A DNA stretch of 64,000 nucleotides, taken from an uncultured Candidatus Saccharibacteria bacterium. Its GTDB lineage: Bacteria; Patescibacteriota; Minisyncoccia; Phycocordibacterales; XYD1-FULL-46-19. Shown piece by piece: positions 14,912 to 33,000 of this stretch (positions are counted from its first letter, which is position 1; every line of letters starts with the position of its first letter). A program made the position numbers and the translations under genes. The stretch covers positions 2,869 through 66,868 of the forward strand of contig CAZIIR010000001.1 of assembly GCA_964539475.1 (NCBI GenBank), written 5' to 3'. The notes beneath the pieces are model-generated. The model saw only the letters and a list, made by a program, of their open reading frames with translations, ran no database searches and had not been told where the DNA came from.

Positions 14912-15277
14912 ATGGCATACATTAGCAATATAAAAAATAAAAAGAAAAAACCACAATCAAAACAACTATTTACCAAAAAGAAAGACTTTTTCGCATCAAT
15001 TGGAGACGGTGATTCAACACTTCCTGCATCTGGTCCAATAACATCAATTCCATATGATGAAGTTGTTCATCCATCACACTACAATCAACTTCCAAATGGC
15101 ATTGAGTGTTGGGACGTTAATGAGCACTTCCCAACAAACATTGGTAGCGCAATTAAATATTTGTGGCGCGCAGGTCTAAAACCTGGACAAGAAACTGTTA
15201 AGGATTTAAATAAAGCAATCCAATATACTCAACGTCAAATTAATTTGTTAGAAGGCAGGAATCCTAAAATGAGTTAA
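14912..15277 (+). CDS. DUF3310-like phage protein
   Basis: Pattern HPSHYN...IECWDV...AIKYLWRAG recalled as the DUF3310 signature. This is recalled from memory, not searched. Confidence 0.4.
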   Translation: MAYISNIKNKKKKPQSKQLFTKKKDFFASIGDGDSTLPASGPITSIPYDEVVHPSHYNQLPNGIECWDVNEHFPTNIGSAIKYLWRAGLKPGQETVKDLNKAIQYTQRQINLLEGRNPKMS

Positions 15278-15289
15278 TATTTTAACTAG

Positions 15290-15329
15290 GCGACAATAAA
15301 GTTCAATCCTTTGTTGTCGCACTTTTATT
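15290..15329 (+). terminator. hairpin plus U-tract terminator candidate
   Basis: gcgacaa / ttgtcgc stem followed by ACTTTTATT. Confidence 0.45.
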
Positions 15330-15650
15330 ATGCATTACGAAGTCCAAATAAGACTAAGTTGGGTTCTTCCACCTAAGTCTAAAATTATAAATGGCATAGA
15401 GATTTATGCTGATTGGTTTGATTGTAGGTTTATCACTCCTACCTTTCCATCTAAGTCTTTAGTTTTAGAAAAGGTAAAAGAAGGAAGCGAAGAAGCTTAT
15501 GAAAAACTTAATTCCGTAATGTATTTATTAAACATAAATGAAAGCAAGATGAAACCTATTTATTCTGGCTCTGATTTTATATCATTAAAGCCTCAGTTTG
15601 AGGACTCTCATATATCATACATTTGGATAACAAAAGTAAATGAAGCTTAG
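15330..15650 (+). CDS. hypothetical protein
   Basis: ORF track. Confidence 0.45.
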   Translation: MHYEVQIRLSWVLPPKSKIINGIEIYADWFDCRFITPTFPSKSLVLEKVKEGSEEAYEKLNSVMYLLNINESKMKPIYSGSDFISLKPQFEDSHISYIWITKVNEA

Positions 15651-17010
15651 AGATTATCAATCATCATTATCACTTGAAGCAAGGAAGTGTTTGGCTAATA
15701 ATAATTCTATTATTCTCCAGCTTACAACTGGTGGTGGTAAAACAAGAATTGCAACAGATATTGTAGATCGAGCAGTAGTTAAGGATATAACCACAGTATT
15801 TCTTGCTGACAGAAAAGAAATTCTTAGTCAAACTGTAAAACATTTTAACAAGCTTGATATTTCATGTCAAATGATTACAGCTGACACCAAGACTATTTAT
15901 AAGTCTAAAGTGTATGTTGGAATGGTTGAATCTTTTTACAGAAGATACTGCAAGGGAATGTTTAATGGAATTGATATTGGTCTTTTCATATTTGATGAGG
16001 CTCACATCAGTTCTTACTACAAGCTAATAAAAAGATTAGAAGAAGAAAAGAAAAACCCATACATCATAGGATTGACAGCAACTCCAGTTGCATCATCTAA
16101 AAATTACCAACTAAAGAAATACTACAAAGATATTGTATGCGGACCATCAACTAGGTGGTTAATTGAGAGCGGTTATCTATTGCCATCAGTTGATATTGGT
16201 AATAGTAATGTTCTTGATCTTGATGTGATGGCTGGTGAGTTCTCAACTGAATCACAAGCAAGACAGTTCAAAAACAACGACATCGACAAAAAGATGTTTG
16301 CCCTTTGGAAGCAACACGCACAATCAAGACAAACATTATGTTATAATATTAACATTGAGCACAATGAATCTGTTCGTGAAATGTTTGATTTTTACGGATA
16401 TGATGTTGCCGCTGTATCATCTGAGACACCAAAAGATGAAAGGGAAGAAATTCTTAACAGATACGAAAAAGGAAACATTCAAATATTATGTAATGTAGGA
16501 ATCCTAACGAAAGGATACGACTCTCCTGGAACTGGTTGTATTATAGCCAACTTCTCAACAGCATCTACATCTAAATGGTATCAAGTTGTTGGTCGAGGAG
16601 GAAGACCATACGATGGTCTTAATGATTTTATTACCATTGACATGGGTAATAATATTCTTAGACATGGTTCATATAATGACGAAGTTGACTGGAAACAAAT
16701 ATTCTTAGATGACAAAAGAGATCGTAACTTTAAAGTAAAACAAAATGTAAAACTATGTCCAGTTTGTTACGCTTATCTATTCAATATACATGTTCCACAG
16801 TGTCATGTATGTGGTAATAAAATTGTTTTAAAAGAATTAATTGTTCTTGAGAAACTAATACCGGAAGAACTCAAAGACAAAGACCCAAAGAATATGACAT
16901 TATCCGAACTGCAACAGTATGCTAAATTTAAAGGATACAAAGCAGGATGGGCTTGGAATATGAACATCGCAAACACAGCAAGGAGACAACATGCAAGACA
17001 ACAACAGTGA
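15640..17010 (+). CDS. SF2 (DEAD/DEAH, ResIII-like) helicase with a C-terminal zinc finger
   Basis: Motif I TGGGKT, motif II FDEAH, motif III GLTATP, the QxxGRGGR region, and CPVC...CHVC. Confidence 0.7.
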   Translation: MKLRDYQSSLSLEARKCLANNNSIILQLTTGGGKTRIATDIVDRAVVKDITTVFLADRKEILSQTVKHFNKLDISCQMITADTKTIYKSKVYVGMVESFYRRYCKGMFNGIDIGLFIFDEAHISSYYKLIKRLEEEKKNPYIIGLTATPVASSKNYQLKKYYKDIVCGPSTRWLIESGYLLPSVDIGNSNVLDLDVMAGEFSTESQARQFKNNDIDKKMFALWKQHAQSRQTLCYNINIEHNESVREMFDFYGYDVAAVSSETPKDEREEILNRYEKGNIQILCNVGILTKGYDSPGTGCIIANFSTASTSKWYQVVGRGGRPYDGLNDFITIDMGNNILRHGSYNDEVDWKQIFLDDKRDRNFKVKQNVKLCPVCYAYLFNIHVPQCHVCGNKIVLKELIVLEKLIPEELKDKDPKNMTLSELQQYAKFKGYKAGWAWNMNIANTARRQHARQQQ

Positions 17011-17311
17011 AACTACAGAGCAAAAAGTTAAAAGAGTTAAAGGTGAAATTCAAAAATTATTCCAAGAAAACGATTTAATTGGAGTTGCAATTATTGGATC
17101 AATTGAAGATTCTTTTATTCCTGATTCTGAAAGTGAAAAACAATTACAAGTTTTCCATTGTTTTATGGCTGAAACAAAATATAGTGGATTTAAATTAAAA
17201 GATGGATGGTATGAAGAAACAGAACAAAAATTAGCAAATAATACAAAAAGCTGTTTCTGTATTATGGGAAACCTTTTTGGTGCATTGCTTAATAAATTTC
17301 TTACTACATAA
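16991..17311 (+). CDS. hypothetical protein
   Basis: ORF track. Confidence 0.45.
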   Translation: MQDNNSETTEQKVKRVKGEIQKLFQENDLIGVAIIGSIEDSFIPDSESEKQLQVFHCFMAETKYSGFKLKDGWYEETEQKLANNTKSCFCIMGNLFGALLNKFLTT

Positions 17312-17688
17312 TGGAACCGCAACACAAACCAAAACGAACACTCAACTACAAAGAAAAAGTTGCTGCTGGTCTTGTTAAGGGTGGTCTTAAAAAGTTCTCT
17401 AAAAAAGGATTGGAAAGACACAAGAAAGAACAGTTGCAGCATAATAAAAATATTAAAGATGGTCAGGTTTTCTGTGTAGCATGTGGCTCTACTAATCACT
17501 TAGAGAAACATCATCCGTTTGGAAGATCAAAACCAGATATATTTGTTTATATATGCGGAGAATATGGATGCAAAATCCACAGATGGATACATGAAAATGT
17601 TAACGAAGCATATAAATTAGGATGGATTCAGCCTCTTTACAGGGGACTTCCAAACAATCCAAACTGGCCAAAACCATGGGAGACATAA
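17311..17688 (+). CDS. HNH endonuclease
   Basis: CVACGSTNHLEKHH...CGEYGCKIHRWIHEN. Confidence 0.55.
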   Translation: MEPQHKPKRTLNYKEKVAAGLVKGGLKKFSKKGLERHKKEQLQHNKNIKDGQVFCVACGSTNHLEKHHPFGRSKPDIFVYICGEYGCKIHRWIHENVNEAYKLGWIQPLYRGLPNNPNWPKPWET

Positions 17689-17931: not shown

Positions 17932-18008
17932 ACGCCTATAGCTCAGCGGTTAGTAGCGGGGATCTCATAAATCCTAGGTCGTTGGTTCGACTCCAACTAG
18001 GCGCACCA
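17932..18008 (+). tRNA. tRNA with anticodon CAU (Met or Ile2 type), CCA encoded, A1-C72 mismatch
   Basis: The cloverleaf was folded by hand. Acceptor acgccta/taggcgc, T-arm gttgg-TTCGACT-ccaac, anticodon loop CTCATAA, 3' ACCA. Confidence 0.8.
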
Positions 18009-18010
18009 AT

Positions 18011-18028
18011 TTCCATCATGTGATGGAA
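18011..18028 (+). promoter_or_regulatory. perfect 8-bp hairpin immediately 3' of the tRNA (processing or terminator element)
   Basis: ttccatca-tg-tgatggaa. Confidence 0.35.
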
Positions 18029-18066
18029 CGTCAAAACAAAGCACAAAAACACGAAATAAATACATT

Positions 18067-19020
18067 ATGAACGCAGGGTTTAAAGCATTCAAAGAAAAAG
18101 CAAACGCAGGAGGTGGCAAATACCTTAAACCAAAAGATATAAAAGGCTCTCAAACATTCAGGATTATTCCATGGTTGTTTAAAAAAGCAATATCGCCTAT
18201 CTTGTTTTATTACGAAGGATGGGTAGAAGGAGAAACAAAGAAAGACAAACCTCACACAATCAGGTTTGAGATTAACTCTGATGGAGGTTATGATGCAGAT
18301 GAAGATATTACATGGGCAAAAGGAGATTATGGACTTCAAACTCCAAAACCTGCATTTGCTATGGTTGTTGCTGATTACGAAACAAATAGTGTTAGGGTTT
18401 TGTCAGGAACTCAGAAAACACTTATTGGACCATTATCAGAATTTCTTGATGATGAGTCTAAGTTGTTTATCAAGGACTGGAATGCTTATGAGATTATTAT
18501 TACAAAAGATGATAAGACTGATAAGTTTTCTATTACCCGTGAAAAACTAGATCAAGAAGATCGTAAATATCCAAAATGGATTATTGATGCACTTGAGGAT
18601 TTTGACTTCTCACTTGATGATTACATTCGTTGCGAGAAGACAGAAGAAGGAAAGGGAGATACTTATAAAGATGTTCTCAATGTAGTTGGTGATAAGCCTT
18701 CTCGCACCGAGAAACAGACTGAACAACCTAAAAAGAAAAAGACTGATGATGCAGAGCGTTCTCCGTCTGACAGCTTTGAAATTGTCCCTGATTGGGCTAA
18801 AGTTGTAACTCCAAATGGAGTAGTTCTTGGGCAAGCAACGGAAGAAAAACTCAAAGATATGAAATCTGTTCTTGACGGAAAAGCTAAATATGATAAGAGT
18901 CAACTTCTCTATCGCGCTATCTGCTCAGGTATTCTTGCTCACTCTAAAGAAGAAGGTGATCCAGAATTTGAACCAGAAGTAGGTGCAGATGGTTTTGCAG
19001 AAGACGACATTCCGTTTTGA
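18067..19020 (+). CDS. single-stranded DNA-binding protein-like, with the acidic C-terminal tip EDDIPF
   Basis: The C-terminus ...FAEDDIPF matches the canonical SSB protein-recruitment tip DDDIPF. The OB fold is not verified. Confidence 0.5.
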   Translation: MNAGFKAFKEKANAGGGKYLKPKDIKGSQTFRIIPWLFKKAISPILFYYEGWVEGETKKDKPHTIRFEINSDGGYDADEDITWAKGDYGLQTPKPAFAMVVADYETNSVRVLSGTQKTLIGPLSEFLDDESKLFIKDWNAYEIIITKDDKTDKFSITREKLDQEDRKYPKWIIDALEDFDFSLDDYIRCEKTEEGKGDTYKDVLNVVGDKPSRTEKQTEQPKKKKTDDAERSPSDSFEIVPDWAKVVTPNGVVLGQATEEKLKDMKSVLDGKAKYDKSQLLYRAICSGILAHSKEEGDPEFEPEVGADGFAEDDIPF

Positions 19021-19113
19021 TAAATTTATTACAAATTTTGGTTGAATCCAATTGGCCTAAACCAAACGACAAGCACAAGAAAAACAAACACGAAAAAAGA
19101 TAAAATACAAAAT

Positions 19114-20610
19114 ATGAAGACTCCAGACATCATTAAGTATAGCGACGACGAAAACGGCGACATTCTTCAACAGGACCGCAGTGAGGTTATTAAGAATATT
19201 GTTAAGCAATATAAAGTCAAACCTGTTGAGGGTAAGCCAGCGACTGAGGTTGTTAAAGACCTTTTGACTATGGCTTTCCGCGCCAAGGATGAAGACATCG
19301 AGCTTCCAGAAGATATGGAGCACTTGCAGAAAGTTGCTGACTATTGTAAGGAACTTGCAAAAGGTCATCGCGACATCTGCGACAAGGAAGCAGAAGAGGA
19401 AAAGCAAAAGAAGGCACTTAAAGCTCAACAGAAGACTCTTGAAAAAGAGGCTAAGGAAAAAGAGGATAAGCAGTATATTGAGAACGCTGCTAAATTTGAG
19501 GAAATTCTTGCTCGCAAGATCAAGGCTTCCGAGGAAAAAGTTAGCGCAAATGTTGTTGCTGCTGTTAAGGCAATCAATCTTCCTAAAACCATTTCCGTAA
19601 CTGGAAACGGTATGGGTATCGTTCTTTCTGAGAGCGCATCCAAGGATGATATTGCTACAGCTACCGCCAGCATGATGAGTGCTGCGGAAGGCAATGGTCA
19701 GATGATGGGTGCTTTGCAGTTCCTTATCGGTGACATTGTTAATGCCTCTGTGGACAAGAAGGTTTTCCGCACCAAGGGCGACGCTTGCAAAAACGTCAAA
19801 TACCTTGTTGAAGAAAAGCTTAATAAAAAGTTTAGCGCAGGAGCTATTAATGCAAACAGTCTTATGGCTGAGCGTATTCCTCCGCAGTATCGTAAGATCG
19901 GTGTTCTGCCATCCGTGTATCTCGCAGCCTCTAAGGTTGTCGCTCCACGGATCAAGGAACTTTCCGAGAAGGACGCTTCGGCACTTGTTGTTAAGTTCGA
20001 CGAAGGTCGTAATAATATGATTAGCCTGATCAATGATGGAACTATCACTTCCATCAAGGATTGTAAGGAATATGAACTCAAGCTTAAGCAGGAAGCTGGA
20101 TTGAATATTTCTCAGCCGGGCGAAGCAGGAAGACAGATTCAACGCTTCCTTCGTCGCTTGTTCTGGGCTATATGGGCTAAGCGTAACCTTGTTGATCCAG
20201 AAACTGGTATCGCTAAGTTCCATGAGCGCGATTGTGATGAGAATGCTCCTGCTGTTGAATACACAGTTGGTCAGTTGACTGACATTGAAGAAGAAGCTCT
20301 GAATAACCTTCAGAATCTCTTCCTTGTTGGTGAAGATGTTCCATCCATTATCAAAGGTTACACTGAGGTTGTGGATGAGAAAACCAAGGCGGTTGCTCAG
20401 GTTCCTAATCTTCTGGACGATCCTTTTGAAGACCCAAAACCAAAGGATAAGAAAGAGGAAGATAAGAAGGACGAGGAGAAGAAGGAAGACAAACCAAAGA
20501 GCAAGTCTAAGCCTACTCCTGAGCCAGAAGAGGAAGAAGATGAGGATGAAGATGAAGATGAAGATGAGGATGAGGATGAAGATGAAGATGAGGATGATTC
20601 CGACATCTAA
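19114..20610 (+). CDS. hypothetical protein with a long poly-(Glu/Asp) C-terminal tail (the start may be the upstream TTG at 19042)
   Basis: ORF track. Sensible composition compared with the 388-aa antisense ORF. Confidence 0.5.
   Translation: MKTPDIIKYSDDENGDILQQDRSEVIKNIVKQYKVKPVEGKPATEVVKDLLTMAFRAKDEDIELPEDMEHLQKVADYCKELAKGHRDICDKEAEEEKQKKALKAQQKTLEKEAKEKEDKQYIENAAKFEEILARKIKASEEKVSANVVAAVKAINLPKTISVTGNGMGIVLSESASKDDIATATASMMSAAEGNGQMMGALQFLIGDIVNASVDKKVFRTKGDACKNVKYLVEEKLNKKFSAGAINANSLMAERIPPQYRKIGVLPSVYLAASKVVAPRIKELSEKDASALVVKFDEGRNNMISLINDGTITSIKDCKEYELKLKQEAGLNISQPGEAGRQIQRFLRRLFWAIWAKRNLVDPETGIAKFHERDCDENAPAVEYTVGQLTDIEEEALNNLQNLFLVGEDVPSIIKGYTEVVDEKTKAVAQVPNLLDDPFEDPKPKDKKEEDKKDEEKKEDKPKSKSKPTPEPEEEEDEDEDEDEDEDEDEDEDEDDSDI
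20527..20598 (+). repeat. (GAR)n trinucleotide tandem repeat encoding an acidic tail
   Basis: gaagat/gaggat units repeated about 20 times. Confidence 0.6.
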
Positions 20611-20634
20611 TATTTAGATTAGAATAATCATCTG

Positions 20635-20670
20635 GCTACCATACAGTTCAAACCTGTATGGTAGCTTTTA
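20635..20670 (+). terminator. rho-independent terminator (12-bp stem plus a T-tract)
   Basis: gctaccatacag-ttcaaac-ctgtatggtagc followed by TTTTAAC. Confidence 0.65.
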
Positions 20671-20675
20671 ACTTT

Positions 20676-21068
20676 ATGACACTTGCGATAGACCCTGGGC
20701 CTAAACTAAGCGGATTCGTATTAATTAACGAATCAGATGACTCTATTGTAAAATTTGGTAAGATTTCATTAAAAGAAATAAAATTATTACAGTCTCAGTT
20801 TAAGATAGACAGACTGATAATTGAAATAACAGACTTTCCTATAGCAATGGCTGGAGAGTCTTTTAGAGACACCAATATAATTATTGGTCGCATTATAGAG
20901 TTCTATAAATGCGCTTGTATTCAAATAGGTCGCAATGAGGCTAAAAACCACTTTGGATTAAAAAACGACAAAGCTGTAATTGCATTCTTAAAAAGGTTTG
21001 GTATAAAACTCAAACAAGATGCATGGCAAGCATATCTAATTTACCAATACTACAAAAGCATTGGATAG
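20676..21068 (+). CDS. RuvC-like Holliday junction resolvase
   Basis: N-terminal MTLAIDPGPKLSGFVLI, as in the RuvC IDPG motif. The start is moved to the ATG downstream of the terminator. Confidence 0.55.
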   Translation: MTLAIDPGPKLSGFVLINESDDSIVKFGKISLKEIKLLQSQFKIDRLIIEITDFPIAMAGESFRDTNIIIGRIIEFYKCACIQIGRNEAKNHFGLKNDKAVIAFLKRFGIKLKQDAWQAYLIYQYYKSIG

Positions 21069-21078
21069 AAAACAAAAC

Positions 21079-21240
21079 ATGAAAGATATAAGAATAAGAA
21101 TTAGCAAAAGTGGAGAATGCTGGCTAATAATAAAAACACCAAATGGAAAAAGTGCAATGATTAGCCTTGGACAAAGAGGCGGTGAAGAAGATAATACAAT
21201 TGTAGGACAAACATTAAGAGAAGTTGCAGAAAAAGAATAA
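21079..21240 (+). CDS. small hypothetical protein (53 aa)
   Basis: Frame open from ATG to TAA, fills an intergenic gap. Confidence 0.3.
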   Translation: MKDIRIRISKSGECWLIIKTPNGKSAMISLGQRGGEEDNTIVGQTLREVAEKE

Positions 21241-22184
21241 TGAAAACACTAATACTACATCACAGCGCAGACATGGATGGCATATTATCAGGTGTAATAG
21301 CTAAATACTATTGCAGGCACACAGCCAATCCTGGTGATCATATTATTACAGCAGGAGCAGATTATGGTGACAATCTTGATAAAACATATCAAGGATGGTC
21401 ACTTGATCAGTTCGATAAAATCTATGTAATTGATTTTTCAGATGACTGGTTATTTACAAACGAAGCGATTCGTAATAAAATTATTTGGATTGATCATCAT
21501 ATTAACGCAATTGAAAAGAATTACAATGTAGCAAAATATGTGTTAGATGGAGTTGCTGCATGTAGGCTTACTCAGCAATTCTTTGCTAATGTAAATTATG
21601 CATTCCTTACCGAGTATGATTACATTGAAAGAAAAGTTAATGAACCATTGTTGGTTGCATTGATTGGAGAGCATGATATTTGGGATGAGTCATCAGTGTT
21701 TGCCAGAAAACTAAACTTTGGTATCACAAATATCAAATTTGAAGCAATTGAATTTCTTCACGAAGAAACAAGGCATGTAATAGCAGGTAAGAAAAATGAT
21801 GAGAAAAATCTTCATCAAAGCGAAAGGCTTGTAAGGATTTGTGATGTTGGTGAAGGTGTTATTAACTACATTCAAAGAACATCATCAATCCTTGGAGGTG
21901 GTATTCCAATAAATATATTCGGACACAAAGGTATTGCGTTTAATACTCATATCAGAAGTTCACTTATTCATCGACTTAAGGATGATGAGGAGTTTATGAT
22001 GGTATGGAACGATACTGGAAAACCATTAATGAAATTATCATTCTATTCAGAAGAAAAAGTGGAAGCACTTAAATTCGCAAAATACTTCGGAGGAGGAGGG
22101 CACAAGAGAGCTTGTGGATGCCAAGTCGATTTCAACACACTAACACTTATTCTTAAAAACCACTACGCAAATATCAAACCATGA
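21240..22184 (+). CDS. DHH/DHHA1 phosphoesterase (NrnA or RecJ-like)
   Basis: HHSADMDG, WIDHH and GGGGH motifs. Confidence 0.7.
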   Translation: MKTLILHHSADMDGILSGVIAKYYCRHTANPGDHIITAGADYGDNLDKTYQGWSLDQFDKIYVIDFSDDWLFTNEAIRNKIIWIDHHINAIEKNYNVAKYVLDGVAACRLTQQFFANVNYAFLTEYDYIERKVNEPLLVALIGEHDIWDESSVFARKLNFGITNIKFEAIEFLHEETRHVIAGKKNDEKNLHQSERLVRICDVGEGVINYIQRTSSILGGGIPINIFGHKGIAFNTHIRSSLIHRLKDDEEFMMVWNDTGKPLMKLSFYSEEKVEALKFAKYFGGGGHKRACGCQVDFNTLTLILKNHYANIKP

Positions 22185-22942
22185 GCGCAACATTCCTAGA
22201 ACTAAAACATCTGTCGGCAAGCACTATTAATGCATTTATTACAAACCGTCCAAAATGGTTTGCTAGTAAGTTTCTTGGGCTTGGATTTAATGGAAGTATT
22301 CATACTACCCGTGGTCATGCTGTAGAAGCTGGTATTGTTTCATGGTTGAAGCAAGGTGATATGACTCAGGCTATTAAAGATGCCATGGAGGAGTATGATA
22401 AAAAGATTGTAGGTATTGAAGACAACATTGAGTTTCGTCAAAGTGTTGGTCCTCTTGTCAAAGTTGGCATTGAAGGAACTGATGACTTTTCTGGATATGA
22501 AGAGTTCAAGACGAAGTATGGCAAGGCTAAGACACAAGAAAAAATCTCAGTTAATCTCGATGGCTGTAGTATTCCTGTCATTGGTTATCTCGACTTCTTG
22601 TATGGAAAGCGAATTATTGATAACAAGGTATCAGGAAAATCCCCATCATGTTTGAGCCAGGATTACATCTTGCAAGGTGCAATCTATAAGAAGGCTACAG
22701 GTCTTCCTGTGTCATTTATGTTCGAGATTGCTAATAAAAAACCTATTGTCAAAATCATTGAGCTTAGTGATGATGATTATAAGTTTGGTATCAATCTTGC
22801 AACCAAAGCTGCAATTGCTATCGAAAGGATTCTTGATAATCCAATTGACATGGATTTAATGAGGGCATTTATGTTCCCTGATCCTAGTGGTGGATATGGT
22901 GGAGATGAACAGAAAGAAGTTTGCAGACTACTAACTAAATAA
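22181..22942 (+). CDS. PD-(D/E)xK nuclease (RecB/Cas4/lambda-exo-like)
   Basis: GYLDF...IIDNK (D...DxK) followed by QDYILQGAIY (QxxxY). Confidence 0.55.
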   Translation: MSATFLELKHLSASTINAFITNRPKWFASKFLGLGFNGSIHTTRGHAVEAGIVSWLKQGDMTQAIKDAMEEYDKKIVGIEDNIEFRQSVGPLVKVGIEGTDDFSGYEEFKTKYGKAKTQEKISVNLDGCSIPVIGYLDFLYGKRIIDNKVSGKSPSCLSQDYILQGAIYKKATGLPVSFMFEIANKKPIVKIIELSDDDYKFGINLATKAAIAIERILDNPIDMDLMRAFMFPDPSGGYGGDEQKEVCRLLTK

Positions 22943-22945
22943 ATT

Positions 22946-23635
22946 ATGAAACTAACTAAATACGATCTTAATTGGGTTTTAAGGCATGTTCCAAAAAACC
23001 TTATTACTATAATTGAAAAGACTCCTAATATTTTTATTGCAGGAGGTTTTATTCGATCATGTGTTGCAAATGAAAAAATCAATGATATTGATCTTTTTGT
23101 ATCCTCTAAAAAAGAAGGTGCTGCTCTTGCGTTTGAGTTAAATAATCATGAAATGCACAGCATTCATGAAACAGATAATGCGTTTACAATTACAAAATAT
23201 AAACCATCAATTCAAATTATTCATAGGTGGGTTTTTGACTGTCCTGAAAAACTAATAGAATCATTTGATTTTACTATTGCAAAATCAGTTGTATTTTATA
23301 AAGACGGTCAATGGGATTCTCTTTGTGATGAATCCTTTTATCCGGACTTGGCTGCTAAAAGACTTGTTTATACTTCACCTCAAAGAGAAGAAGAGGCGGG
23401 AGGATCAATGTTAAGAGTATTAAAGTTTTATCAAAATGGATATAGGATTCCGTTAGATTCACTATCATCTGTTATAACAAGGCTTATTAGTAAAATTGAT
23501 TTTAAATCTTGTAAAAGAGACAATCCAAAAGATACTGACTTTCAATTGTCTAAAGTTATATGTGGTCTTCTTAGGTCTGTTGATCCTAATGTTGATCCAA
23601 CACACGAAGCTCATCTTCCGTCTAAAGGTGAGTAA
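22946..23635 (+). CDS. pol-beta-type nucleotidyltransferase resembling the head domain of CCA-adding enzyme or poly(A) polymerase
   Basis: IAGGFIRS...NDIDLFV (GGxxR...DxD), SFDFTIAKS (RDFTINA-like) and GSMLRVLKFYQNGYRIP (DPLRILRAxRF-like). Confidence 0.55.
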   Translation: MKLTKYDLNWVLRHVPKNLITIIEKTPNIFIAGGFIRSCVANEKINDIDLFVSSKKEGAALAFELNNHEMHSIHETDNAFTITKYKPSIQIIHRWVFDCPEKLIESFDFTIAKSVVFYKDGQWDSLCDESFYPDLAAKRLVYTSPQREEEAGGSMLRVLKFYQNGYRIPLDSLSSVITRLISKIDFKSCKRDNPKDTDFQLSKVICGLLRSVDPNVDPTHEAHLPSKGE

Positions 23636-24020
23636 AGAGCCGCCAGAGCATATAATAAATAGATTCCTGCTTAACAGACTTAATAATGTATGCACTCCTG
23701 ATAGATTCTGTTGTCAAATAAAAGATGGAAAGCTGTATGCTTATGTTGGAGGTAGTGATAAAATCATCTACAATCCAGCTACAGACACTCTTGATTTGCA
23801 ATATATTTATTACGGATACCTGCATCTTAAAAAGTCTAAGTTAAACAAGAAAATATTCAAGGATATTTTTGACATGCTTTCAAATGTCAAAATAGAAAAA
23901 ACTCCAGATCAGATTCTTAAAGAGAAATACGGAATTACATCAAAAAGAGTTAATGGAAAAATTAAAAAAGAAATAATGAAGTATGAAGCACTTAAGCCCA
24001 AAAACATTCCATCCGATTAA
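23628..24020 (+). CDS. hypothetical protein (GTG start preferred; the track gives 23496)
   Basis: No in-frame ATG downstream of the upstream gene's stop. A GTG preceded by AAAGG is in frame. Confidence 0.35.
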   Translation: MSKEPPEHIINRFLLNRLNNVCTPDRFCCQIKDGKLYAYVGGSDKIIYNPATDTLDLQYIYYGYLHLKKSKLNKKIFKDIFDMLSNVKIEKTPDQILKEKYGITSKRVNGKIKKEIMKYEALKPKNIPSD

Positions 24021-24546
24021 TAATAATATATTAGTTAAAAGGTTACAGCCAATGAGAGTTGGCAAGATTATTATTCCTGATCAGACTATTCAAAAGTCTT
24101 TCTATGCAGTAATAATTCGTGTTGGTGAAAAAGTAAAAGATACAGGACTTGTTCCTGATAAGATTATTTTTGTATGCCCAACATCAAGACACAATCAAAA
24201 GATTGATGAGTTTCATTGGATTATTAAAGAGCAAGATATTCATGCTATTCGTCATGGTGAAATTCTTAGACCATTCGGAAATAGAGTTTTCCTTAAGCGT
24301 CTTAATCAAGAAACAAAGATTGGTAGTATAATTATTCCAGACATGCACGAGACTGCCGACCAGTCCTTAATGGGAATATTTGTATTACGAGGAATTAAAA
24401 ACAATGAACCAATTGATATTCCATTAGTTGGTGGAGAGCATGTTAAAATCAATAAGTGGTCAATGGATATTGTTGAAATTGACGTTGATGGTGAGTATTT
24501 TTTATCAGTAAAAACATCACAGCTTGAATATGCTGAACATAATTAA
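23983..24546 (+). CDS. tandem double-domain GroES/Cpn10 co-chaperonin
   Basis: Two ~90-aa halves each align to GroES by eye: ILVKRLQPMRVGKIIIPD...AVIIRVGEKV and RVFLKRLNQETKIGSIIIPD...VGGEHVKI. Confidence 0.6.
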   Translation: MKHLSPKTFHPINNNILVKRLQPMRVGKIIIPDQTIQKSFYAVIIRVGEKVKDTGLVPDKIIFVCPTSRHNQKIDEFHWIIKEQDIHAIRHGEILRPFGNRVFLKRLNQETKIGSIIIPDMHETADQSLMGIFVLRGIKNNEPIDIPLVGGEHVKINKWSMDIVEIDVDGEYFLSVKTSQLEYAEHN

Positions 24547-25111
24547 ATCATTCTGTAGAGTAAGGCAGTTTCCAACTGACCTTGCTTTTTTGATTGGAGT
24601 TGAAGAGTCTTCACTTTTATATTATCTAATTCAAACATATGGCAATCTTAAGTTTGATGGCAATTATCCTAAGATATGGAAAGTAGATACTCTTTCTAAA
24701 CTTCAAGGCCGTGGATTGGTTACAATGATTGCTGATAATGTTTTTATTATCAATTACACAAAGCTGGACCAATTACTATGTCCGTCTGATTTACATATAG
24801 CTGTAATTCCAACATTTCACGATGAACGGTTTGTTGGGCTATGTGAAAAATGGCATCAGATTCTAAAAGAAAAGAATAGAACCAAAACTCTAAAGGAAAT
24901 ATATTTATTATTCAAAGGCAAAGCTCTTGAGGAATCAATAGAGGCATTGTCTAATTCAATTAACAATAGATGGGTAGGATTACACTTCAATGAATCTTCT
25001 AAAGATAATAAGACAGATAGAAGCAGCGGAAAGCCTGGGATTACAAGAGGAGGAGGAGAGCACAACAAAGGAGACGGAAAAGAATACAACACTACAAAGC
25101 GCATTGGATAA
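24524..25111 (+). CDS. hypothetical protein. It overlaps the next gene by 120 nt, and its C-terminus is low-complexity
   Basis: ORF track. Confidence 0.4.
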   Translation: MNMLNIIKSFCRVRQFPTDLAFLIGVEESSLLYYLIQTYGNLKFDGNYPKIWKVDTLSKLQGRGLVTMIADNVFIINYTKLDQLLCPSDLHIAVIPTFHDERFVGLCEKWHQILKEKNRTKTLKEIYLLFKGKALEESIEALSNSINNRWVGLHFNESSKDNKTDRSSGKPGITRGGGEHNKGDGKEYNTTKRIG

Positions 25112-25673
25112 TTTTGATTGGAAGTTCAAAACTCCAGATTCTGCTCTTAAGGAAATCAAAGCAGATGCTATAAGGTTTATAACAGACTTATACAACAAGG
25201 AGTATAAGTTTTTTACATTGTTAGGTCCGACCGAAAGAGGCAAGACTCTTTTGCTTAACGACATAATGAGGTTTATTAAAGAGAACTCATCACTGTTTAA
25301 GTTTCCTTATGCCAAAAAAACAGTAGAAGGAAGGTGTGATAAATTTATTATATATGGCACACTAAAGGAACTTGTTTCACAATGTCTTGGCAATCCAAAA
25401 AGATATGAAGAAATAAAAACATGTGGAATACTATTCATTGAAGAGTTCTATAACTTCAATGTAATCAATAACTACAATGCTATGGTTATTGAAATAGCAT
25501 TTGATATTCTCAACTCAAGGGATAAAAAAGCTGTTGTCATTGACAGTAATAAAATGATTAAAGAGATTGAGGAATTAGATGTTCGTATCTCATCAAGGCT
25601 CCATAGAAATAACTCAATTGTTATTGAGATTTCTGACAAGGTTCCAATGTATCTTAAGCGACCAAAAAAATAA
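24990..25673 (+). CDS. P-loop ATPase (DnaC/IstB-like, possible helicase loader)
   Basis: Walker A GPTERGKT, Walker B ILFIEEF. Confidence 0.5.
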   Translation: MNLLKIIRQIEAAESLGLQEEEESTTKETEKNTTLQSALDNFDWKFKTPDSALKEIKADAIRFITDLYNKEYKFFTLLGPTERGKTLLLNDIMRFIKENSSLFKFPYAKKTVEGRCDKFIIYGTLKELVSQCLGNPKRYEEIKTCGILFIEEFYNFNVINNYNAMVIEIAFDILNSRDKKAVVIDSNKMIKEIEELDVRISSRLHRNNSIVIEISDKVPMYLKRPKK

Positions 25674-26761: not shown

Positions 26762-27040
26762 TTACAAGTTAATCCTCGCTCTATTCTTCGCCTTCGACTG
26801 GAGGCGAAGATTAGTAATTTTATTAGTGCCTCCAGTTGATATTGGTTTCTTGTGATCTACGTCCTTATTCTTCATCATAGCTGATGCGCGTTTAGGTCCG
26901 TATTTCTTGGTAAGAAACACCTCCATATCACGCCTAGCTTTATTTCGCTGCGACCTCTGCTTTATAGTTTTTTTATTATAAAGCTTGTCTTTTGTGTAGT
27001 CTCTTCCGGTTGACTTATTATGGACTCGTTTCTTCTTCAT
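26762..27040 (-). CDS. HNH endonuclease, last gene of the late operon
   Basis: DVDHKKPISTGGTNKITNLRLQSKAKNR HNH motif. Confidence 0.55.
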   Translation of the reverse strand: MKKKRVHNKSTGRDYTKDKLYNKKTIKQRSQRNKARRDMEVFLTKKYGPKRASAMMKNKDVDHKKPISTGGTNKITNLRLQSKAKNRARINL

Positions 27041-30000
27041 ATGCAGCTAATTGTTCTTCGCGTTCTTTGCCTGATTTTTCGATTAAGCTACTTGCCCTAA
27101 AGTATCTCTTGATGTCTGGTTGTGATACACCAATCACTGCCGCAAGATTTACAAAATCCAGTGGTGATATAGCCTCTGGTTTTTGAAAGAACTTAGAACC
27201 GCTTTCAATAGCATCGACTATTCCTTCCACCGTTCCACCAAAACTTCCACCGATATTAGCAATTGTTCTTTGCTCATATACGGCAGGAAGAAACTCTTGC
27301 ATCTGAATGTTTGCCAACTCTTCACTTAGAAGAGTTACAGTCTTACGGTTTTCAAGAGCCTTGTGTCTTTTGATTAGTTTTTGGATTCGATCAATTTCTC
27401 CTTTTTTCCAAGCCTTGAAGGTTTCAGCCTCTGGTCCGTCAGATCCTACATGAATAATTATATTAGGAACAGCTTCAAGGTTAAACGGAATAAACATGTT
27501 AGATGCTGCATCCTTTACTGTCTTGATTGAAAGAATCCTTGTGTTGTTAGTTCTGTTTTGAATATTCTGAATAACCTTACGATTCTTTTCTCTCATAGAA
27601 ATCTCAGCATTGAGTGTGCGACGCTCATTTTTTGTCATTCTATTTTGAGACTTAGAGTAAAGCTTTTTTAATTCCTCCTCTTCTTCTGGATTCTTCAATG
27701 CATGAACAATAGCGGCAGCCATTCCATACTGAACTGCATATGCCATCATTGTATATGTTACAGATTGAGCAGCAATACCCATCATGTATTTAAATGATTT
27801 GGCTTTTTGTTCTCTACTTACATCTGAATCAAAAAGCCTTCTCATTTCCTTTCCAAAGTTTACAGCGTTATTGATCGAGAACGACCTAAACGCTATTAAT
27901 AAATTTCTTGCAATACTTATTTTAGCATCCTTGTTAGTGAGATACTCACCACGACGAGAAGCATCACCAATACCTATATAACGCTCTGTTGCGTCAATAG
28001 CTTTTATGTATGACACTGGATCGTATGTAAGGTCTTCAAGTCTGACATGAGTTCCTTTTGAGTCCTGTTCAGCATTAAGGTATTCAGCAAGTGCCATAGG
28101 AGCACCTGACAATGTATCAGAAAGCCTGAATGCTTTAAACAGAATATTTTCGATTCCTTTATCAACACCAACTACTGCCCTATACAAATAAGGCATTTCC
28201 TTTTTCATCATTTCAACTAATGAGCTAGGATTAATATCCAGATTAACTGATTTGTCGATTTCTTGGAATTGCTGGCGATGAGTTACTTCAAAGATAACCT
28301 TATCCACAAGTCTTGCTTGATGAGGTTCAAGCATTCCCATTCTGTGTTTTAATAAATATGTTGCAGCTTTAAAATAGTTGCCAATTTTGTGTGGCTCATT
28401 AATGTGCTGAACAAAGTATGGAGTAGTATTTGAAACAAGCTGTGCTGGCAACTGATGTAAACCAGACAATACGCCCTGAGCCCATTTTCTTCCAACCCAG
28501 TTTGTAGCAACATGGTATGAATGCATGTATGATGCTTGAGACATCACATTCTGCCACGTTCCATTCATCGCACTTCTGAATGCATCTGTCCGACCTCTCT
28601 TTTGTTCTGGATCACCTAAGAACTTAGCAAACAATTTTCCATTCTTGTTTTTGTGATTCAGCAATTGAGACATCTCCTGTCTTGCATGTGCTGTAAAATA
28701 ATCATACACAGCAATCCTGCCAAGAGACTCACCGGCATAATTTATATTAAACACAAGAGAACGATTTGTTCCTATTTTTCTTGTTCTCGACTTAGTAGAA
28801 CCAAGTCCAGTTGTATTTGTTCCATAAAATATTTGTCCAGAAGAGAATGATTGAGCATCAGTTAGCATTTGAGCTTTGGCGATATCAAAATCTGTATCAC
28901 CTTCACCTTTGATGATAACTGACATTGTTGGAATGTAGTTCTCGATTTCCTCAAATGGTCTTCCATAAATAAACTCTGTAGTGAACTTAGAAAGAGGTTT
29001 TAGTGCATCATACATCTTAACGATACCATCTGCATATTGGATTCCCTTGTCTCCAATAAATATATTAGCATTCTGGTAGAATTTAGCAACATCTTCTGGT
29101 GTGAAGTCAGAAGTAAGTTGTCCATTTTCTATAGTGTAGTTAATACCAGACAGGAAGTTATCTTCAAGATACTCTTGATGACGCTTTCCTTGTGCATCAA
29201 AGTCTCTATCGTAAACTCCAATAGTATTTTTATTAGAGTCAAGAACCCATTGGACGCTTGCTTTAAATCCCTCTTCAGGAGATTCAACTAATTTTCTTTG
29301 ACGAAGGATTCCAAACATTCCTATCTTGTTAGCCATGTCAGCATCAAGAACACCGTTATAAACATCACTTTGAAGTGATTCAATGTATGGTGTAATAACT
29401 TCTTCGTGATACCGTTTAGCAAGAACAAGACCTTCACGGAATGGTGCTTGAAGACGAGTCAAAAGATCGTAAGAATAACCATCGGTTGCAAGTCGTTCAA
29501 TCTGACTTGAGTTAGATTCAAGTTTAGATATGTCAGAGTTCTTTTTTCTTGTCCCGTATGGGTCACTAAACGTGGCCTCCATGTTTCTAATGATATCTGT
29601 TGTCTCACTACTAATAAATCCCTCAAGACGATTTGGATAGCCATCAGTAACAAGACTAAGAAGTGAGTAATAAACTCTGCGTAAATCTCCACCACTAAGA
29701 GATGTTGCATCCGTAGTAATTAAACTAAGCGCGTATTCATTAAATAGCTTACGCATTATTGCAACTTGTTCTCTTAGAATTGGAATACCATTATCCAAGA
29801 TTGGATTACCTGTCTCTACAAGGCTGCTATCAAGATCAACAACTCCACGGTTAATAATATCACTAATATCATCAATTGCTTCAATAGCTTGGAACTGGAG
29901 ATCAACAACAGCATCCATTGTTGCAATGTCAGAGTCGTTAATAACAACGGATGCAAGATCATCGTTCTTCTCTTGAATAAGGTCTTGAAAGTGTTTTCTC

Positions 30001-33000
30001 GCAGCGCCAGCGTCTTCATTAAAGAATGCAAACTCAGGAAATCCCTCTACTCGACTTGCGTAGAACTCGTATTCGTTTTTGTTAGCTTTCTTTTTATAGT
30101 CGATCAAACGCTGTTCAAGTGTGTCAACAGGAATCCTTTCAGTGGCAGGATTTTCCTGTTTGTTGCGAGTATTAACAAAGTCTTGATAATCAGCCAAGAA
30201 AGCCTCTACGTCATTATCGTTAAGGAATGCGTATGGAACACCTTTGAAAGCGTTGTTGATTTGAATTTCTTTACCCATGAGTTTTTGCTCATAAGTTCTC
30301 TTGATTAGTTTAGCTATTTCCTTAGAAGCTTTGGATTTAGATTGTGTAATAATTTCATTATCAGTCACAATCCAATCAAGATCGTTGTCTTCTGTTGGTT
30401 CTACTGGAGCTTTTTGTTTAGGCTGTGATTTGCTAAAACGAATGTCTGGAGAATTAGAGAATCGTTGAGACAAAGGAATTACATTACCTTGATCGTCTTT
30501 TGTAACAGGGTCTGAGGATTTAAATTGAGAAGAATCAAACCCAGCAATTGCGTCTGCTTCTTGCTCTGCGCTTTTTTCTCGTAAAAGAAAACCATCAAAA
30601 CCAGCTTCCAGTAGTTCTTTTTTTAACTGCCCCTTGTTTAATCTCTCAAAAACTGGACTCTGCATTCCATTGCTTGGCTTGGCCTTAACTCCCAACGATT
30701 GGACAAATGTATCAAATTCCTGGTTGCTAACACTTCCAGATCCAAGCTGCCGAAAATCTGCCGGATTTGAAATATTATGATAAAGACTCAATGATTTATC
30801 TCCAAAAAGTTGAGAATACTTTTTGTTTTCTGTGACGTATATCAACCCAACACCATCTGTCTTAATAGGAGATACCAAAAAACTTCTTCCTGTTGAGGTT
30901 AATATATTTCTAATCCTTCCAAATATATTAAAATCAGAATTTGTTGAATGAATAACCATAGATGGTTTGTATCCAGCCTCTTTAGCAGCCTCATCAACCA
31001 TCTTTTGAGCGGTGTCTAAATCACCAGACTTAACTGCCGCCAAGTATTTTTGATCTTTAACATTATTATTAGGCTGTGATTTACTAAATCTAAGTAGTCC
31101 ACGGTTTTGTGGAACACTGAACATGTATCCGGTGTTGGTGTCTTTATTAAACACAGCAGACTTACCTTTTCCGTGCCTACCAACTGTTACTTTTTTAGGT
31201 TGTGAGTTAGTAAGTTTTTTAAGACCGTTAGGAACGCGCTCGTCGTATGCGGCTTTCATTCCTGACTCTTGTTCTATTTTTGGAACTGATTTTTTTAACA
31301 GATCAGCTCTAACTGTTTCTCCATCATAAGTTGTTAAGCGATAGATATTACCGTCTGGTCCTTCTGATTTTATTCCAGGTATAGCTCCTTCGCTTCCATC
31401 TGCCATTGTATAAGTAGTATCAATATCAGTCCTGGGAATCCAATCATCTGGCATTTTAATGTTACCATTATTATACGATGCATTTTCTATAATATCTCCA
31501 TCTTTTTCTGGATTTGCAAGTTCATAAATATCACCAACTTGATCATGCCCCTCAGTCATCATTGCTGTTTCAGCATCGCTTGTAATAATTTTATCAGCAC
31601 CTTGTTCTTGTGCAAAATTAACAGCGGCTTTAAGTGCAAGTGATTCCCAATAGTTTAGGAGCGGAGATGAAATATCTTCTCCAAGACTTTCCCATTTATC
31701 AATAAGAAGAATATTGTCTTCTTTAGATATTACTTCATTTTCTTTATATTTATAAATATCAACACCAGTATCTTCTGCTTCTCGTTTTGTTAAATGCAAT
31801 GAATTAGACGACCCTTTTTTGCTAATAGTAATAGAATCATCTAAAAGCTCTATTACAAGATCAGATTTTTTATAACCATCTAATCTATTTTTGTCTCTAC
31901 TTAATTTTCCAGCCCAATCGCTTTGAACTTCCCATATTTCAAGAATGCGAGTTGGTTTAGTTGCGGTTGTTCCGTCTGGTAGTTTGTTTCCAGTTTGGTA
32001 TTCATGGATACCACCACGAACGAATGCTAGTTGGTTTGCTTTAACACTACCTTCGTAATGCTGAGATTCAAATTTAGGTTTTGGAGTTACTGTTGCTCCT
32101 GTGTCTCTTACGAATACAGTAATTGTTCTATTTTCATCGTAAATTGAAGACTCAGATGTTGTTACAAAATACCTAGGTTCTGGATATTTATTTTGAAACT
32201 CCTCAAGCTTACCTTCCTTTTCTTCTATTGGAAAGGATTCTTTTACAATATATTTATTATCATATAAAGAATTATCTATTTTATTTAAAGAAGATGATTC
32301 TTCACTTGGAAGTGGAACATTCAAACTCAAATCACCAGACCAAATAAGCTTATGTCCAGGCTCGATTTCTTCACCTTTAAGTTGTTCGTTTGAGTATGGA
32401 TCTACTCCGTATTTTCCGGTGGCAGAGCTATTTTTTGCCGCTAAGAAACTACCGGTAGAATATAGTTCAATATATTCATTAGCAAGTTTCTTTGCATTTT
32501 CTGGAAGTTCTTCTAATTTAACACCACCAAATGTTTTAAATACAGCAGTTTCACCAGTAAACATTGGAGCGTCAGGCGCAAACCCAATGGTTTCTAGTTC
32601 GTGCTGAACAACACCAACTGTTCTGCTTAATGCGCCACCACTAAAATCTAACTTATTTATTACAACAGTAGGAACTGTGTCGATCACTTCCGCCAGTTCC
32701 GACATATTAACACGACCATTTTTTGATAAATCGTTAACAAGTTGTGTCAGTGTATCAACCTCAAACTCAGTAGCTCCTGATTTTTTGATCTTAGCTGCAA
32801 GGTTTTGAGAAGGAAGAGTTCCATCTTTAGCCACAACAAGACCCATTACATTTTCAGGGTCTTTTAGTTGGTCAGCAAGACGAAAATCAAACTGGTTGGT
32901 TGAACGACTAAAGCGAGTTGCTGCTGGAGTTTTGTATAAATACTTATCTCCCATTATAACATTTTTATCACTGTTCATTCCTGCGAACTCAAGAACAGCT

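Follow-up and report, generated by a model that had tools for sequence, protein, structure and literature searches.

Gad2 was described as the second anti-defence protein directed against Gabija, a 400-residue protein of the Bacillus phage SPbetaL7, which turns Gabija-sensitive when Gad2 is missing (Yirmiya et al., 10.1101/2023.05.01.538930). According to the same study, a Brevibacillus homologue is non-toxic and sufficient to block Gabija, SPbetaL7 Gad2 is toxic on expression, and AlphaFold predicts it to be a nucleotidyltransferase. Here, we present the analysis of a 64,000-nucleotide stretch of contig CAZIIR010000001.1 (positions 2,869 to 66,868; in the following, the window is this whole stretch of 64 kb), which has a GC content of 36.7%. 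A run of replication and recombination genes on its + strand houses both a tRNA gene with anticodon CAU (17932-18008) and the gene of a nucleotidyltransferase (NTase) of 229 residues (22946-23635). Both are located where an uncultured phage, rich in AT, carries its early replication and recombination genes, but they are independent of each other. A preliminary description had taken them together as one module consisting of an initiator-like tRNA and a CCA-adding-enzyme-like NTase; from this interpretation, the fold class of the NTase and the tRNA as a real gene could be retained, whereas the module, the CCA-adding enzyme, and the initiator could not. The reading which we favour, with modest confidence, is that of an independent tRNA-Ile2 and an accessory Gad2-type anti-defence NTase, which is not the partner of the tRNA.

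Judged from its sequence, the 229-residue protein belongs to the Gad2 superfamily (PF26128), of which it is a short form that stands alone. A large protein search gave 1,878 relatives, and all those listed, including the 100% identical P0001, carry a precomputed match to PF26128; this is the family named "Gad2" in the gene tables of the homologue loci. A BLASTP comparison with SPbetaL7 Gad2 (gene OQ921347.1) gave 27% identity for residues 5-119 with an E-value of 1e-12, and hhalign related the protein to Gad2 residues 13-167 with a probability of 98% and an E-value of 1.7e-13. Among the PHROG families, the best match was phrog_4400 (no known function, E-value 1.9e-15), and a weaker one was phrog_1614, annotated as "nucleotidyltransferase". 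The PHROG of SPbetaL7 Gad2 itself is 18122; PHROGs 4400, 18122, 27100, 16176, 1614, and 25514 are matched by both proteins. In Pfam, the PolyA_pol head (PF01743) reached 17.7 bits, which is below the cut-off of 23 (E-value 0.0048). The Pfam set scanned was apparently devoid of the PF26128 model, since SPbetaL7 Gad2 itself remained unmatched to PF26128 there. For the 229-residue protein, the NCBIfam scan gave a single sub-threshold match (11.2 bits, cut-off 3000) and the PADLOC scan gave none.

The metal-binding motif GG...DxD is intact, and residues G33, G34, D47, and D49 are shared with Gad2. The architecture of the founder, which comprises about 400 residues, is not found in the 229-residue protein, and the alignment stops near Gad2 residue 167. 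When the relatives were clustered at 50% identity, a profile search matched 4,166 cluster representatives with E-values of at most 1e-3, among them 500 with E-values of at most 1e-30; most of the best 150 matches have a length of 220-260 residues. Among species genomes, 7 of 185,579 contained a family match; this value is a lower bound, as the scan used two motif patterns alone. The family is almost purely viral. The short-form NTase is a new member of it; the Gad2 family itself was already known.

The NTase head motifs listed in the preliminary description are all present in the 229 residues. These are IAGGFIRS...NDIDLF (G33, G34, R37, and D47-x-D49), SFDFTIAK (D108), and GGSMLRVLKF (R157); the residues given in brackets are invariant in 57 homologues. 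The structure was predicted with a pLDDT value of 93.3. A fold comparison of this model, in which each of the top matches aligned about 180 residues with enzymes of 344-517 residues, listed two proteins of the poly(A) polymerase family (3wfo, score 13.7; 4wby, 13.3), a CCA-adding enzyme (3h37, 13.2), the poly(A) polymerase of E. coli (3aql, 12.9), the CCA-adding enzymes of Bacillus (1miv, 10.8) and Arabidopsis (10.6), TENT5B (10.0), the head-only protein 2la3 (9.4), and the human CCA enzyme (8.5). Scores were about 6 for antibiotic nucleotidyltransferases, 5.4 for MenT1, and 5.0 for CD-NTases. By its fold, the protein therefore falls into the group formed by poly(A) polymerases and class II tRNA nucleotidyltransferases, and not with CD-NTases, MenT/MNT toxins, or antibiotic NTases. 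The preliminary description had named a grouping with the latter as the outcome that would speak against it; this outcome did not occur, since the predicted structure has the class II tRNA nucleotidyltransferase fold. According to the model, the protein corresponds to the conserved head-plus-neck core of class II CCA-adding and poly(A) enzymes.

At the level of sequence, this relationship is faint. A phmmer search of PDB sequences gave nothing, a profile search of PDB sequences gave CCA enzymes and poly(A) polymerase alone, with E-values that are not significant, and alignments to the human CCA enzyme, 4wby, and E. coli Cca are collinear, though below significance. Motif A of class II enzymes (GGxVRD...DxD) corresponds to G33-G34-x-x-R37 ... 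D47-x-D49, motif B (RRD-(F/L)-T-I-N) to S106-F107-D108-F-T-I-A, the D-L motif to D134-L135, and EDPLRVLRVARF to E149-[DE]150-A-G-G-S-M-L-R157-V-L-K-F, with the templating arginine opposite S154. The Polymerase-beta head with motif A and the class II neck are present. In motif B, the RRD is replaced by S106-F107-D108, which is nearly invariant in the family. In motif D (EDxxR), E149 is invariant, position 150 is an aspartate or a glutamate, and S154 is placed opposite the templating arginine with a GG insertion, in an hhalign alignment of 2% probability. The tRNA-binding body and tail are missing, as the protein ends after the neck, and the PF01743 gathering score is not reached. The designation as a CCA-adding enzyme is not supported in view of the missing body and tail, the lack of an RRD in motif B, and this PF01743 score. 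As far as the motifs tell, the Polymerase-beta metal site is intact and the enzyme looks active, whereas the motif for ribose recognition is lost and the base pocket has probably changed. This narrows the candidate chemistry: a nucleotide would be passed on to an acceptor of the 3'-OH type by an enzyme whose pockets for ribose and base are altered.

In order to follow the genomic surroundings of tRNA and NTase, four syntenic relatives of the phage (loci L101 to L105) were compared, which were reached via a protein search with the nuclease encoded upstream of the NTase and a subsequent contig look-up. (An IMG/VR locus search with the neighbouring PD-(D/E)XK or DHH genes gave no close relatives.) L101/L102, L103, and L104/L105 share all neighbour genes in the same order, with amino-acid identities of 29-66%. 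Neither tblastn nor the gene tables gave an NTase match in L101 to L105. Directly after the nuclease, the relatives contain an open reading frame (ORF) of 125-132 residues, with tblastn hits in L103, L104, and L105; its counterpart in the window is the 130-residue ORF (23628-24020, +), to which no function is assigned and which probably begins with a GTG, 8 nt of the ORF thus overlapping with the end of the NTase gene. Because this ORF lies directly 3' of the PD-(D/E)XK gene in the relatives, the NTase insertion ends, on its downstream side, at this ORF. The relatives keep the module without the NTase, which is therefore a lineage-specific single-gene insertion: the phage gained one accessory gene just behind the PD-(D/E)XK nuclease. 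The stop codon of the latter is located 3 nt upstream of the NTase start. We regard this nuclease as context for the NTase and do not claim that both work jointly. A conserved trio of DHH protein, nuclease, and NTase, which had been considered as well, was discarded, as the relatives keep DHH and nuclease without the NTase.

The tRNA varies independently of the NTase: in L103, the slot of the tRNA is occupied by another tRNA-CAU although the NTase is missing, and L101 and L105 lack both. Furthermore, 82 loci (80 from IMG/VR, L001, and the FoX4 locus), all bearing NTase homologues, were scanned for tRNAs, and in 64 of them no tRNA was found within 10 kb. In a few IMG/VR loci, tRNA-CAU genes lie 0.6-1.7 kb from the homologue; a linkage based on these was rejected, as they resemble initiators, are not related to the tRNA of the window, and are missing from most loci. 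The genes next to the NTase in the window did not recur in any of the 80 IMG/VR loci; the two helicases alone gave weak matches (24-28% identity) in five of these. The neighbours of NTase homologues vary and include PolA, a clamp-loader-like ATPase, a DNA methylase, RecT, and an SNF2 helicase. In L001 (9481-11543), the closest homologue P0002 (61% identity) is placed between a dGTP_diPhyd_N (MazZ-like) gene and a D12-class/Dam-type methylase; genes of the AdoMet_dc-like and radical-SAM types and another methylase are nearby, and the locus looks rich in genes for DNA modification and nucleotide metabolism. As the NTase is missing in the relatives, as the L103 tRNA occurs without it, and as the homologue loci are mostly free of tRNAs, we conclude that tRNA and NTase are independent acquisitions and not parts of one module. 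These observations do not support the tRNA maintenance module of the preliminary description, and a need for CCA addition is not supported by the tRNA itself, which encodes its own CCA.

The tRNA at 17932-18008 (+) is the sole one detected by ARAGORN in the window (CAT in the DNA), and its Rfam score (RF00005) of 54 bits is well above the gathering score of 29, such that it is no pseudogene by score. ARAGORN, Rfam, and the sequence agree with the earlier account of the gene with respect to the anticodon CAU, the encoded CCA, and the A1·C72 mismatch. The latter results from the acceptor strands ACGCCUA and UAGGCGC (sequence and ARAGORN drawing) and is not conserved, as the L103 tRNA-CAU, whose gene does not encode a CCA, contains G1-C72. 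A73 is the discriminator, and C13·U22 is a second non-standard pair (Rfam). In the ARAGORN drawing, the anticodon stem contains G29-C41, A30-U40, and U31-A39, and the pair 11:24 is C-G. An exact search of IMG/VR for the core of the tRNA gave nothing; when the region was compared with GenBank phages by means of blastn, the tRNA alone was matched.

A CAU anticodon is compatible with an initiator, an elongator tRNA-Met, or a lysidine-modified tRNA-Ile2. Bacterial initiators are characterized by C1·A72, three consecutive G-C pairs 29-31:39-41, and A11:U24, and the determinant for their formylation is the lack of a Watson-Crick pair at 1:72. The tRNA of the window has no Watson-Crick pair at 1:72; the three G-C pairs and A11:U24 are absent. 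Nine tRNA-CAU genes located near NTase homologues in other phages are mostly initiator-like, with CGCGGGG or TGCGGGG acceptor strands and GGGCUCAUAACCC anticodon arms, and are sharply unlike the window tRNA. For a comparison with E. coli tRNAs, 5,426 complete genomes were searched; the following statements refer to the best 12 of the 4,972 records that matched. PGAP annotates the top two as tRNA-Ile (77.3% and 75.7% identity), and one of them adjoins rpoD-mug, which is the position of ileX. The remaining matches are tRNA-Thr, and there is no tRNA-Met among them. In the alignment with E. coli tRNA-Ile, segments of the D-loop and the T-stem are identical, and C4, C5, G68, and G69 are common to both. 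In order to discriminate tRNA-Ile2 from tRNA-Met, the E. coli lysidine synthetase TilS uses 4:69 and 5:68, and the Burkholderia enzyme uses G3:C70 and C4:G69 (PMC11947777). The tRNA of the window carries G3:C70, C4:G69, and C5:G68, i.e. these identity pairs. The use of AUA is in agreement with this assignment: in 51 long ORFs of the window, AUA and AUG occur 20.8 and 17.6 times per 1000 codons, respectively. Because of the E. coli tRNA-Ile matches, the TilS pairs, and the use of AUA, the tRNA is, by its sequence features, of the elongator type and most likely a lysidine-modified, AUA-reading tRNA-Ile2. TilS of the host would convert its C34 into lysidine, such that AUA is read. The tRNA would then be an ordinary phage accessory tRNA which contributes to codon supply. 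The "initiator with reversed identity" proposed in the preliminary description is not supported, as the other initiator hallmarks are absent and the closest E. coli gene, among these best 12 records, is that of a tRNA-Ile2.

Among the alternatives considered, an elongator (or unusual initiator) tRNA-Met in place of tRNA-Ile2 is the one that survives best, although we think it unlikely. ARAGORN and GenBank phage records call similar genes tRNA-Met, but ARAGORN and most phage annotations cannot separate Ile2 from Met. Likewise, the absent Watson-Crick pair at 1:72 recalls the formylation determinant of initiators, but the pairs 29-31:39-41 are G-C, A-U, and U-A, and 11:24 is C-G instead of A-U. 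In addition, the strong dissimilarity to the aligned initiator-like phage tRNA-CAUs, the presence of the TilS identity pairs, and the E. coli matches (tRNA-Ile first, weaker ones tRNA-Thr, no tRNA-Met) speak against a tRNA-Met.

For the NTase, we consider it as probable, by analogy, that the lineage-specific accessory gene has an anti-defence role. Such a role had been proposed before, and it is plausible via the membership in the Gad2 family, but not for the tRNA-based reason given then. By analogy with SPbetaL7 Gad2, the NTase would act early in infection against a Gabija-type system, which consists of an OLD-family nuclease and a helicase. A nucleotide taken from an NTP or dNTP would be transferred via the metal site formed by D47 and D49 to an acceptor, which could be the 3' end of a nucleic acid, a protein, or a small molecule. 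The place of the gene directly behind a recombination nuclease would be sensible for an anti-Gabija role.

Several points weigh against the combination of an independent tRNA-Ile2 with a Gad2-type anti-defence NTase. The identity to the founding Gad2 is about 27% and limited to its N-terminal 165 residues. The Gad2 C-terminus of about 230 residues is missing from the window protein; conversely, Gad2 has neither the E-D-A-G-G segment nor the VDP...HLP tail. Because of this low similarity, the missing C-terminus, and the unshared segments, the two proteins may differ in function. Moreover, the mechanism of Gad2 was described as not elucidated in February 2026 (PMC12904381). On the side of the tRNA, the matches to E. 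coli, which is not the host, are weak (E-values of 4e-3 to 1e-2), the TilS rules vary by species (PMC11947777), and the A1·C72 mismatch is left without explanation.

As an alternative to the Gad2-type role outlined above, the NTase might act on DNA or on the nucleotide pool, by tailing or blocking DNA 3' ends or as part of a DNA-modification step. This idea, which we rate as improbable, could also explain how the family evades Gabija. DNA ends are the target of Gabija, and base modification is a way to escape from it (PMC12904381; PMC12407980). The idea fits with the loss of the ribose-discriminating RRD and with the location of the gene within replication/recombination modules both here and elsewhere (PolA, clamp-loader-like protein, RecT, DNA methylases). 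P0002, which is flanked by the gene with the MazZ-like dGTP diphosphohydrolase domain and by the Dam-type methylase, is a further argument in its favour. However, no partner gene is conserved across the homologue loci.

A minimal enzyme for the repair of tRNA 3' ends, which re-adds all or part of the CCA to tRNAs of host and phage after trimming by defence or host nucleases, appears quite improbable to us. In its favour, every one of the closest solved structures is a class II enzyme of the CCA-adding, A-adding, or poly(A) type, the order of motif A, DFTI, D-L, and the LRxL(K/R)F helix is the same as in E. coli Cca and the human CCA enzyme, E149 and D/E150 may match the ED of motif D, and the 229 residues constitute the conserved catalytic core of head and neck. 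Yet the RRD, which recognizes the ribose 2'-OH, reads SFD, the templating arginine is aligned with Ser 154 (in a low-confidence alignment), and PolyA_pol stays below its threshold with 17.7 instead of 23 bits. The NTase is linked to a tRNA neither in the relatives nor in 64 of the 82 loci, and the phage tRNA has an encoded CCA. P2 Old and PARIS, OLD-family relatives of the Gabija nuclease, are tRNases (10.64898/2026.07.10.737580), but the same source describes these enzymes as tRNA cleavers and leaves CCA unmentioned. A broader variant, which we likewise regard as a long shot, concerns the whole family: Gad2-type enzymes including the short form may be minimal class II RNA 3'-end NTases acting on tRNA or small RNA, such that Gabija, and perhaps other OLD-family systems, would be evaded by modification or repair of 3' ends and not by inhibition of the nuclease. 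If this were true, Gabija would be tied to the tRNA cleavage recently described for the related P2 Old and PARIS (10.64898/2026.07.10.737580).

The weakest alternative, a host-takeover or toxin-like NTase which modifies 3' ends of host RNA or tRNA (as a MenT-like block or a poly(A)-like decay tag) and thereby turns off functions of the host, is very improbable: the fold of the poly(A) polymerase/CCA type, the toxicity of expressed SPbetaL7 Gad2, and a phage NTase with Gad2-annotated homologues that slowed the growth of P. putida at high induction (10.64898/2026.09.15.751885) are consistent with it, but toxicity upon over-expression is unspecific, PADLOC gave no match, and the Brevibacillus Gad2 homologue is non-toxic and yet blocks Gabija.

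The further genes of the region are all encoded on the + strand and are in line with replication and recombination. Upstream of the tRNA, library scans (Pfam, PHROG) identified a helicase (15640-17010), and a possible HNH-type protein (17311-17688) was noted by its motif upon visual inspection; family scans gave no significant match for the latter. The helicase has 456 residues in the window, whereas its homologue in L101 (943-3333) has 796 residues and shows Hom_end_hint (intein) matches and a faint LAGLIDADG match; the L101 protein thus appears, from these matches, to hold an intein that is missing from the window copy. Directly downstream of the tRNA, the gene at 18067-19020 encodes a protein of 317 residues, which has no family match, is kept in the relatives, and ends with EDDIPF. 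This end, whose last residues DDIPF were recognized by eye, resembles the acidic C-terminal tail of the bacterial single-strand DNA-binding protein (SSB), and the product is, on this basis, probably the single-strand DNA-binding protein of the phage. It is followed by a protein with an acidic tail (19042-20610, an ORF translation), a RuvC-like resolvase (20658-21068, PHROG), a DHH phosphoesterase (21240-22184, Pfam and PHROG), and the PD-(D/E)XK nuclease of the recombination module (22181-22942), which was assigned by phrog_10230 and by a PF12705 PDDEXK_1 match in one homologue. The listed start of the RuvC-like ORF (ATG 20658) falls within a hairpin (20635-20665); the alternative ATG 20676 yields MTLAIDPG..., which we take to be the look of a typical RuvC-type N-terminus, and is the more likely start.

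In the relatives L101 to L105, a DUF3310 gene is located between the DHH and the PD-(D/E)XK genes. The window has none at that place; its DUF3310 protein is encoded at 14912-15277 (+) instead. Small accessory genes around this module have thus been rearranged a second time. Downstream of the NTase and the 130-residue ORF, Pfam detected a double Cpn10 (23983-24546, +) and a DnaA-like ATPase (24990-25673, +). The former has 187 residues with two Cpn10 (GroES) matches, i.e. it is a tandem co-chaperonin, and is kept in all relatives. Directly past the early region, an ORF of 3,316 residues (27018-36968) starts on the opposite strand (-). Its equivalents in the relatives comprise 2,407 and 3,673 residues before they run off the loci, and one of them shows HATPase_c matches.

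Besides the tRNA, the window contains further RNA-like elements. A "second tRNA-like gene at 3658" had been added to the supposed module; the element is tRNA-like, but it fails the normal thresholds of ARAGORN and Rfam. At 3658-3740 (+), ARAGORN reports an 83-nt tRNA-Ser(tga)-like fold at -ps80 only. This fold has an acceptor stem of 8 bp, a T arm of 5 bp with a GTTCGATTC loop, and an AAUGAAA anticodon loop (UGA) with A33 in place of U33, and it lacks a CCA. The Rfam tRNA-Sec model gave 29.6 bits as compared to a gathering score of 47 (E-value 8e-4 in a search of 601 nt). The element is part of a strongly structured RNA-like region (3520-3745, +; minimum free energy -87.9 kcal/mol, z -4.96 versus shuffles), in which a long hairpin (about 3548-3662) with an outer stem of 15 bp runs straight into the tRNA-like fold.

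Two perfect 12-bp hairpins at 15290-15320 (+) and 20635-20665 (+) carry the T-loop-like loop G-TTCAAWC-C. Both have the geometry of an acceptor/T-arm minihelix, differ in the sequence of their stems, are intergenic, and are followed by an ATG 9-10 nt downstream. Even one T-loop-like hairpin occurred in only 4 of 300 block shuffles. At the slot of the hairpin at 20635, before the RuvC-like gene, L101, L103, and L105 also contain a hairpin, with GCAA, AACCT, or ACTC as loops. As these loops differ, the T-loop look is probably incidental, the idea of minihelix substrates was dropped, and both elements are probably terminator-like hairpins.

These results have consequences for annotation and for biochemistry. 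A phage tRNA and a nearby CCA-like enzyme do not necessarily constitute a tRNA repair module. The catalytic head and neck of class II CCA-adding/poly(A) enzymes are all that the members of a very large family, viral almost throughout, consist of, and the 229-residue protein is a small, well-folding representative for biochemical work on Gad2-type enzymes.

A comparison with the known systems summarizes the position of both features. The tRNA has in common with the ileX-type tRNA-Ile2 of E. coli the anticodon CAU, the pairs G3:C70, C4:G69, and C5:G68, segments of the D-loop and T-stem, A73, and the CCA; it differs by A1·C72 in place of G1-C72, by C13·U22, and by its anticodon stem. Compared to class II CCA-adding, A-adding, and poly(A) enzymes, the NTase is devoid of body and tail, has SFD for RRD, and has apparently replaced the arginine of EDxxR; its sequence similarity is below significance (Pfam 17.7 versus 23 bits, hhalign 2%), and there is no sign of a tRNA linkage. 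NP_344798.1 of Streptococcus pneumoniae (PDB code 2la3), a head-only, CCA-enzyme-like protein, which is likewise without known function, shows 10% identity, and the window protein adds the neck helices to such a head. With 229 versus 400 residues, it is shorter than SPbetaL7 Gad2, whose C-terminal region of about 230 residues it does without, and two features of its subfamily, the segment R-x-E-[DE]-A-G-G, which is invariant, and the conserved tail VDPxxDPxHxxHLP at the C-terminus, are absent from Gad2. Nevertheless, both proteins share a homologous N-terminal NTase domain with the motifs AGG...INDxD, Q.IH, FDFT, and S(M/L)LRV.K(F/Y), the same PHROG neighbourhood, a phage-borne gene, and a variable genomic context.

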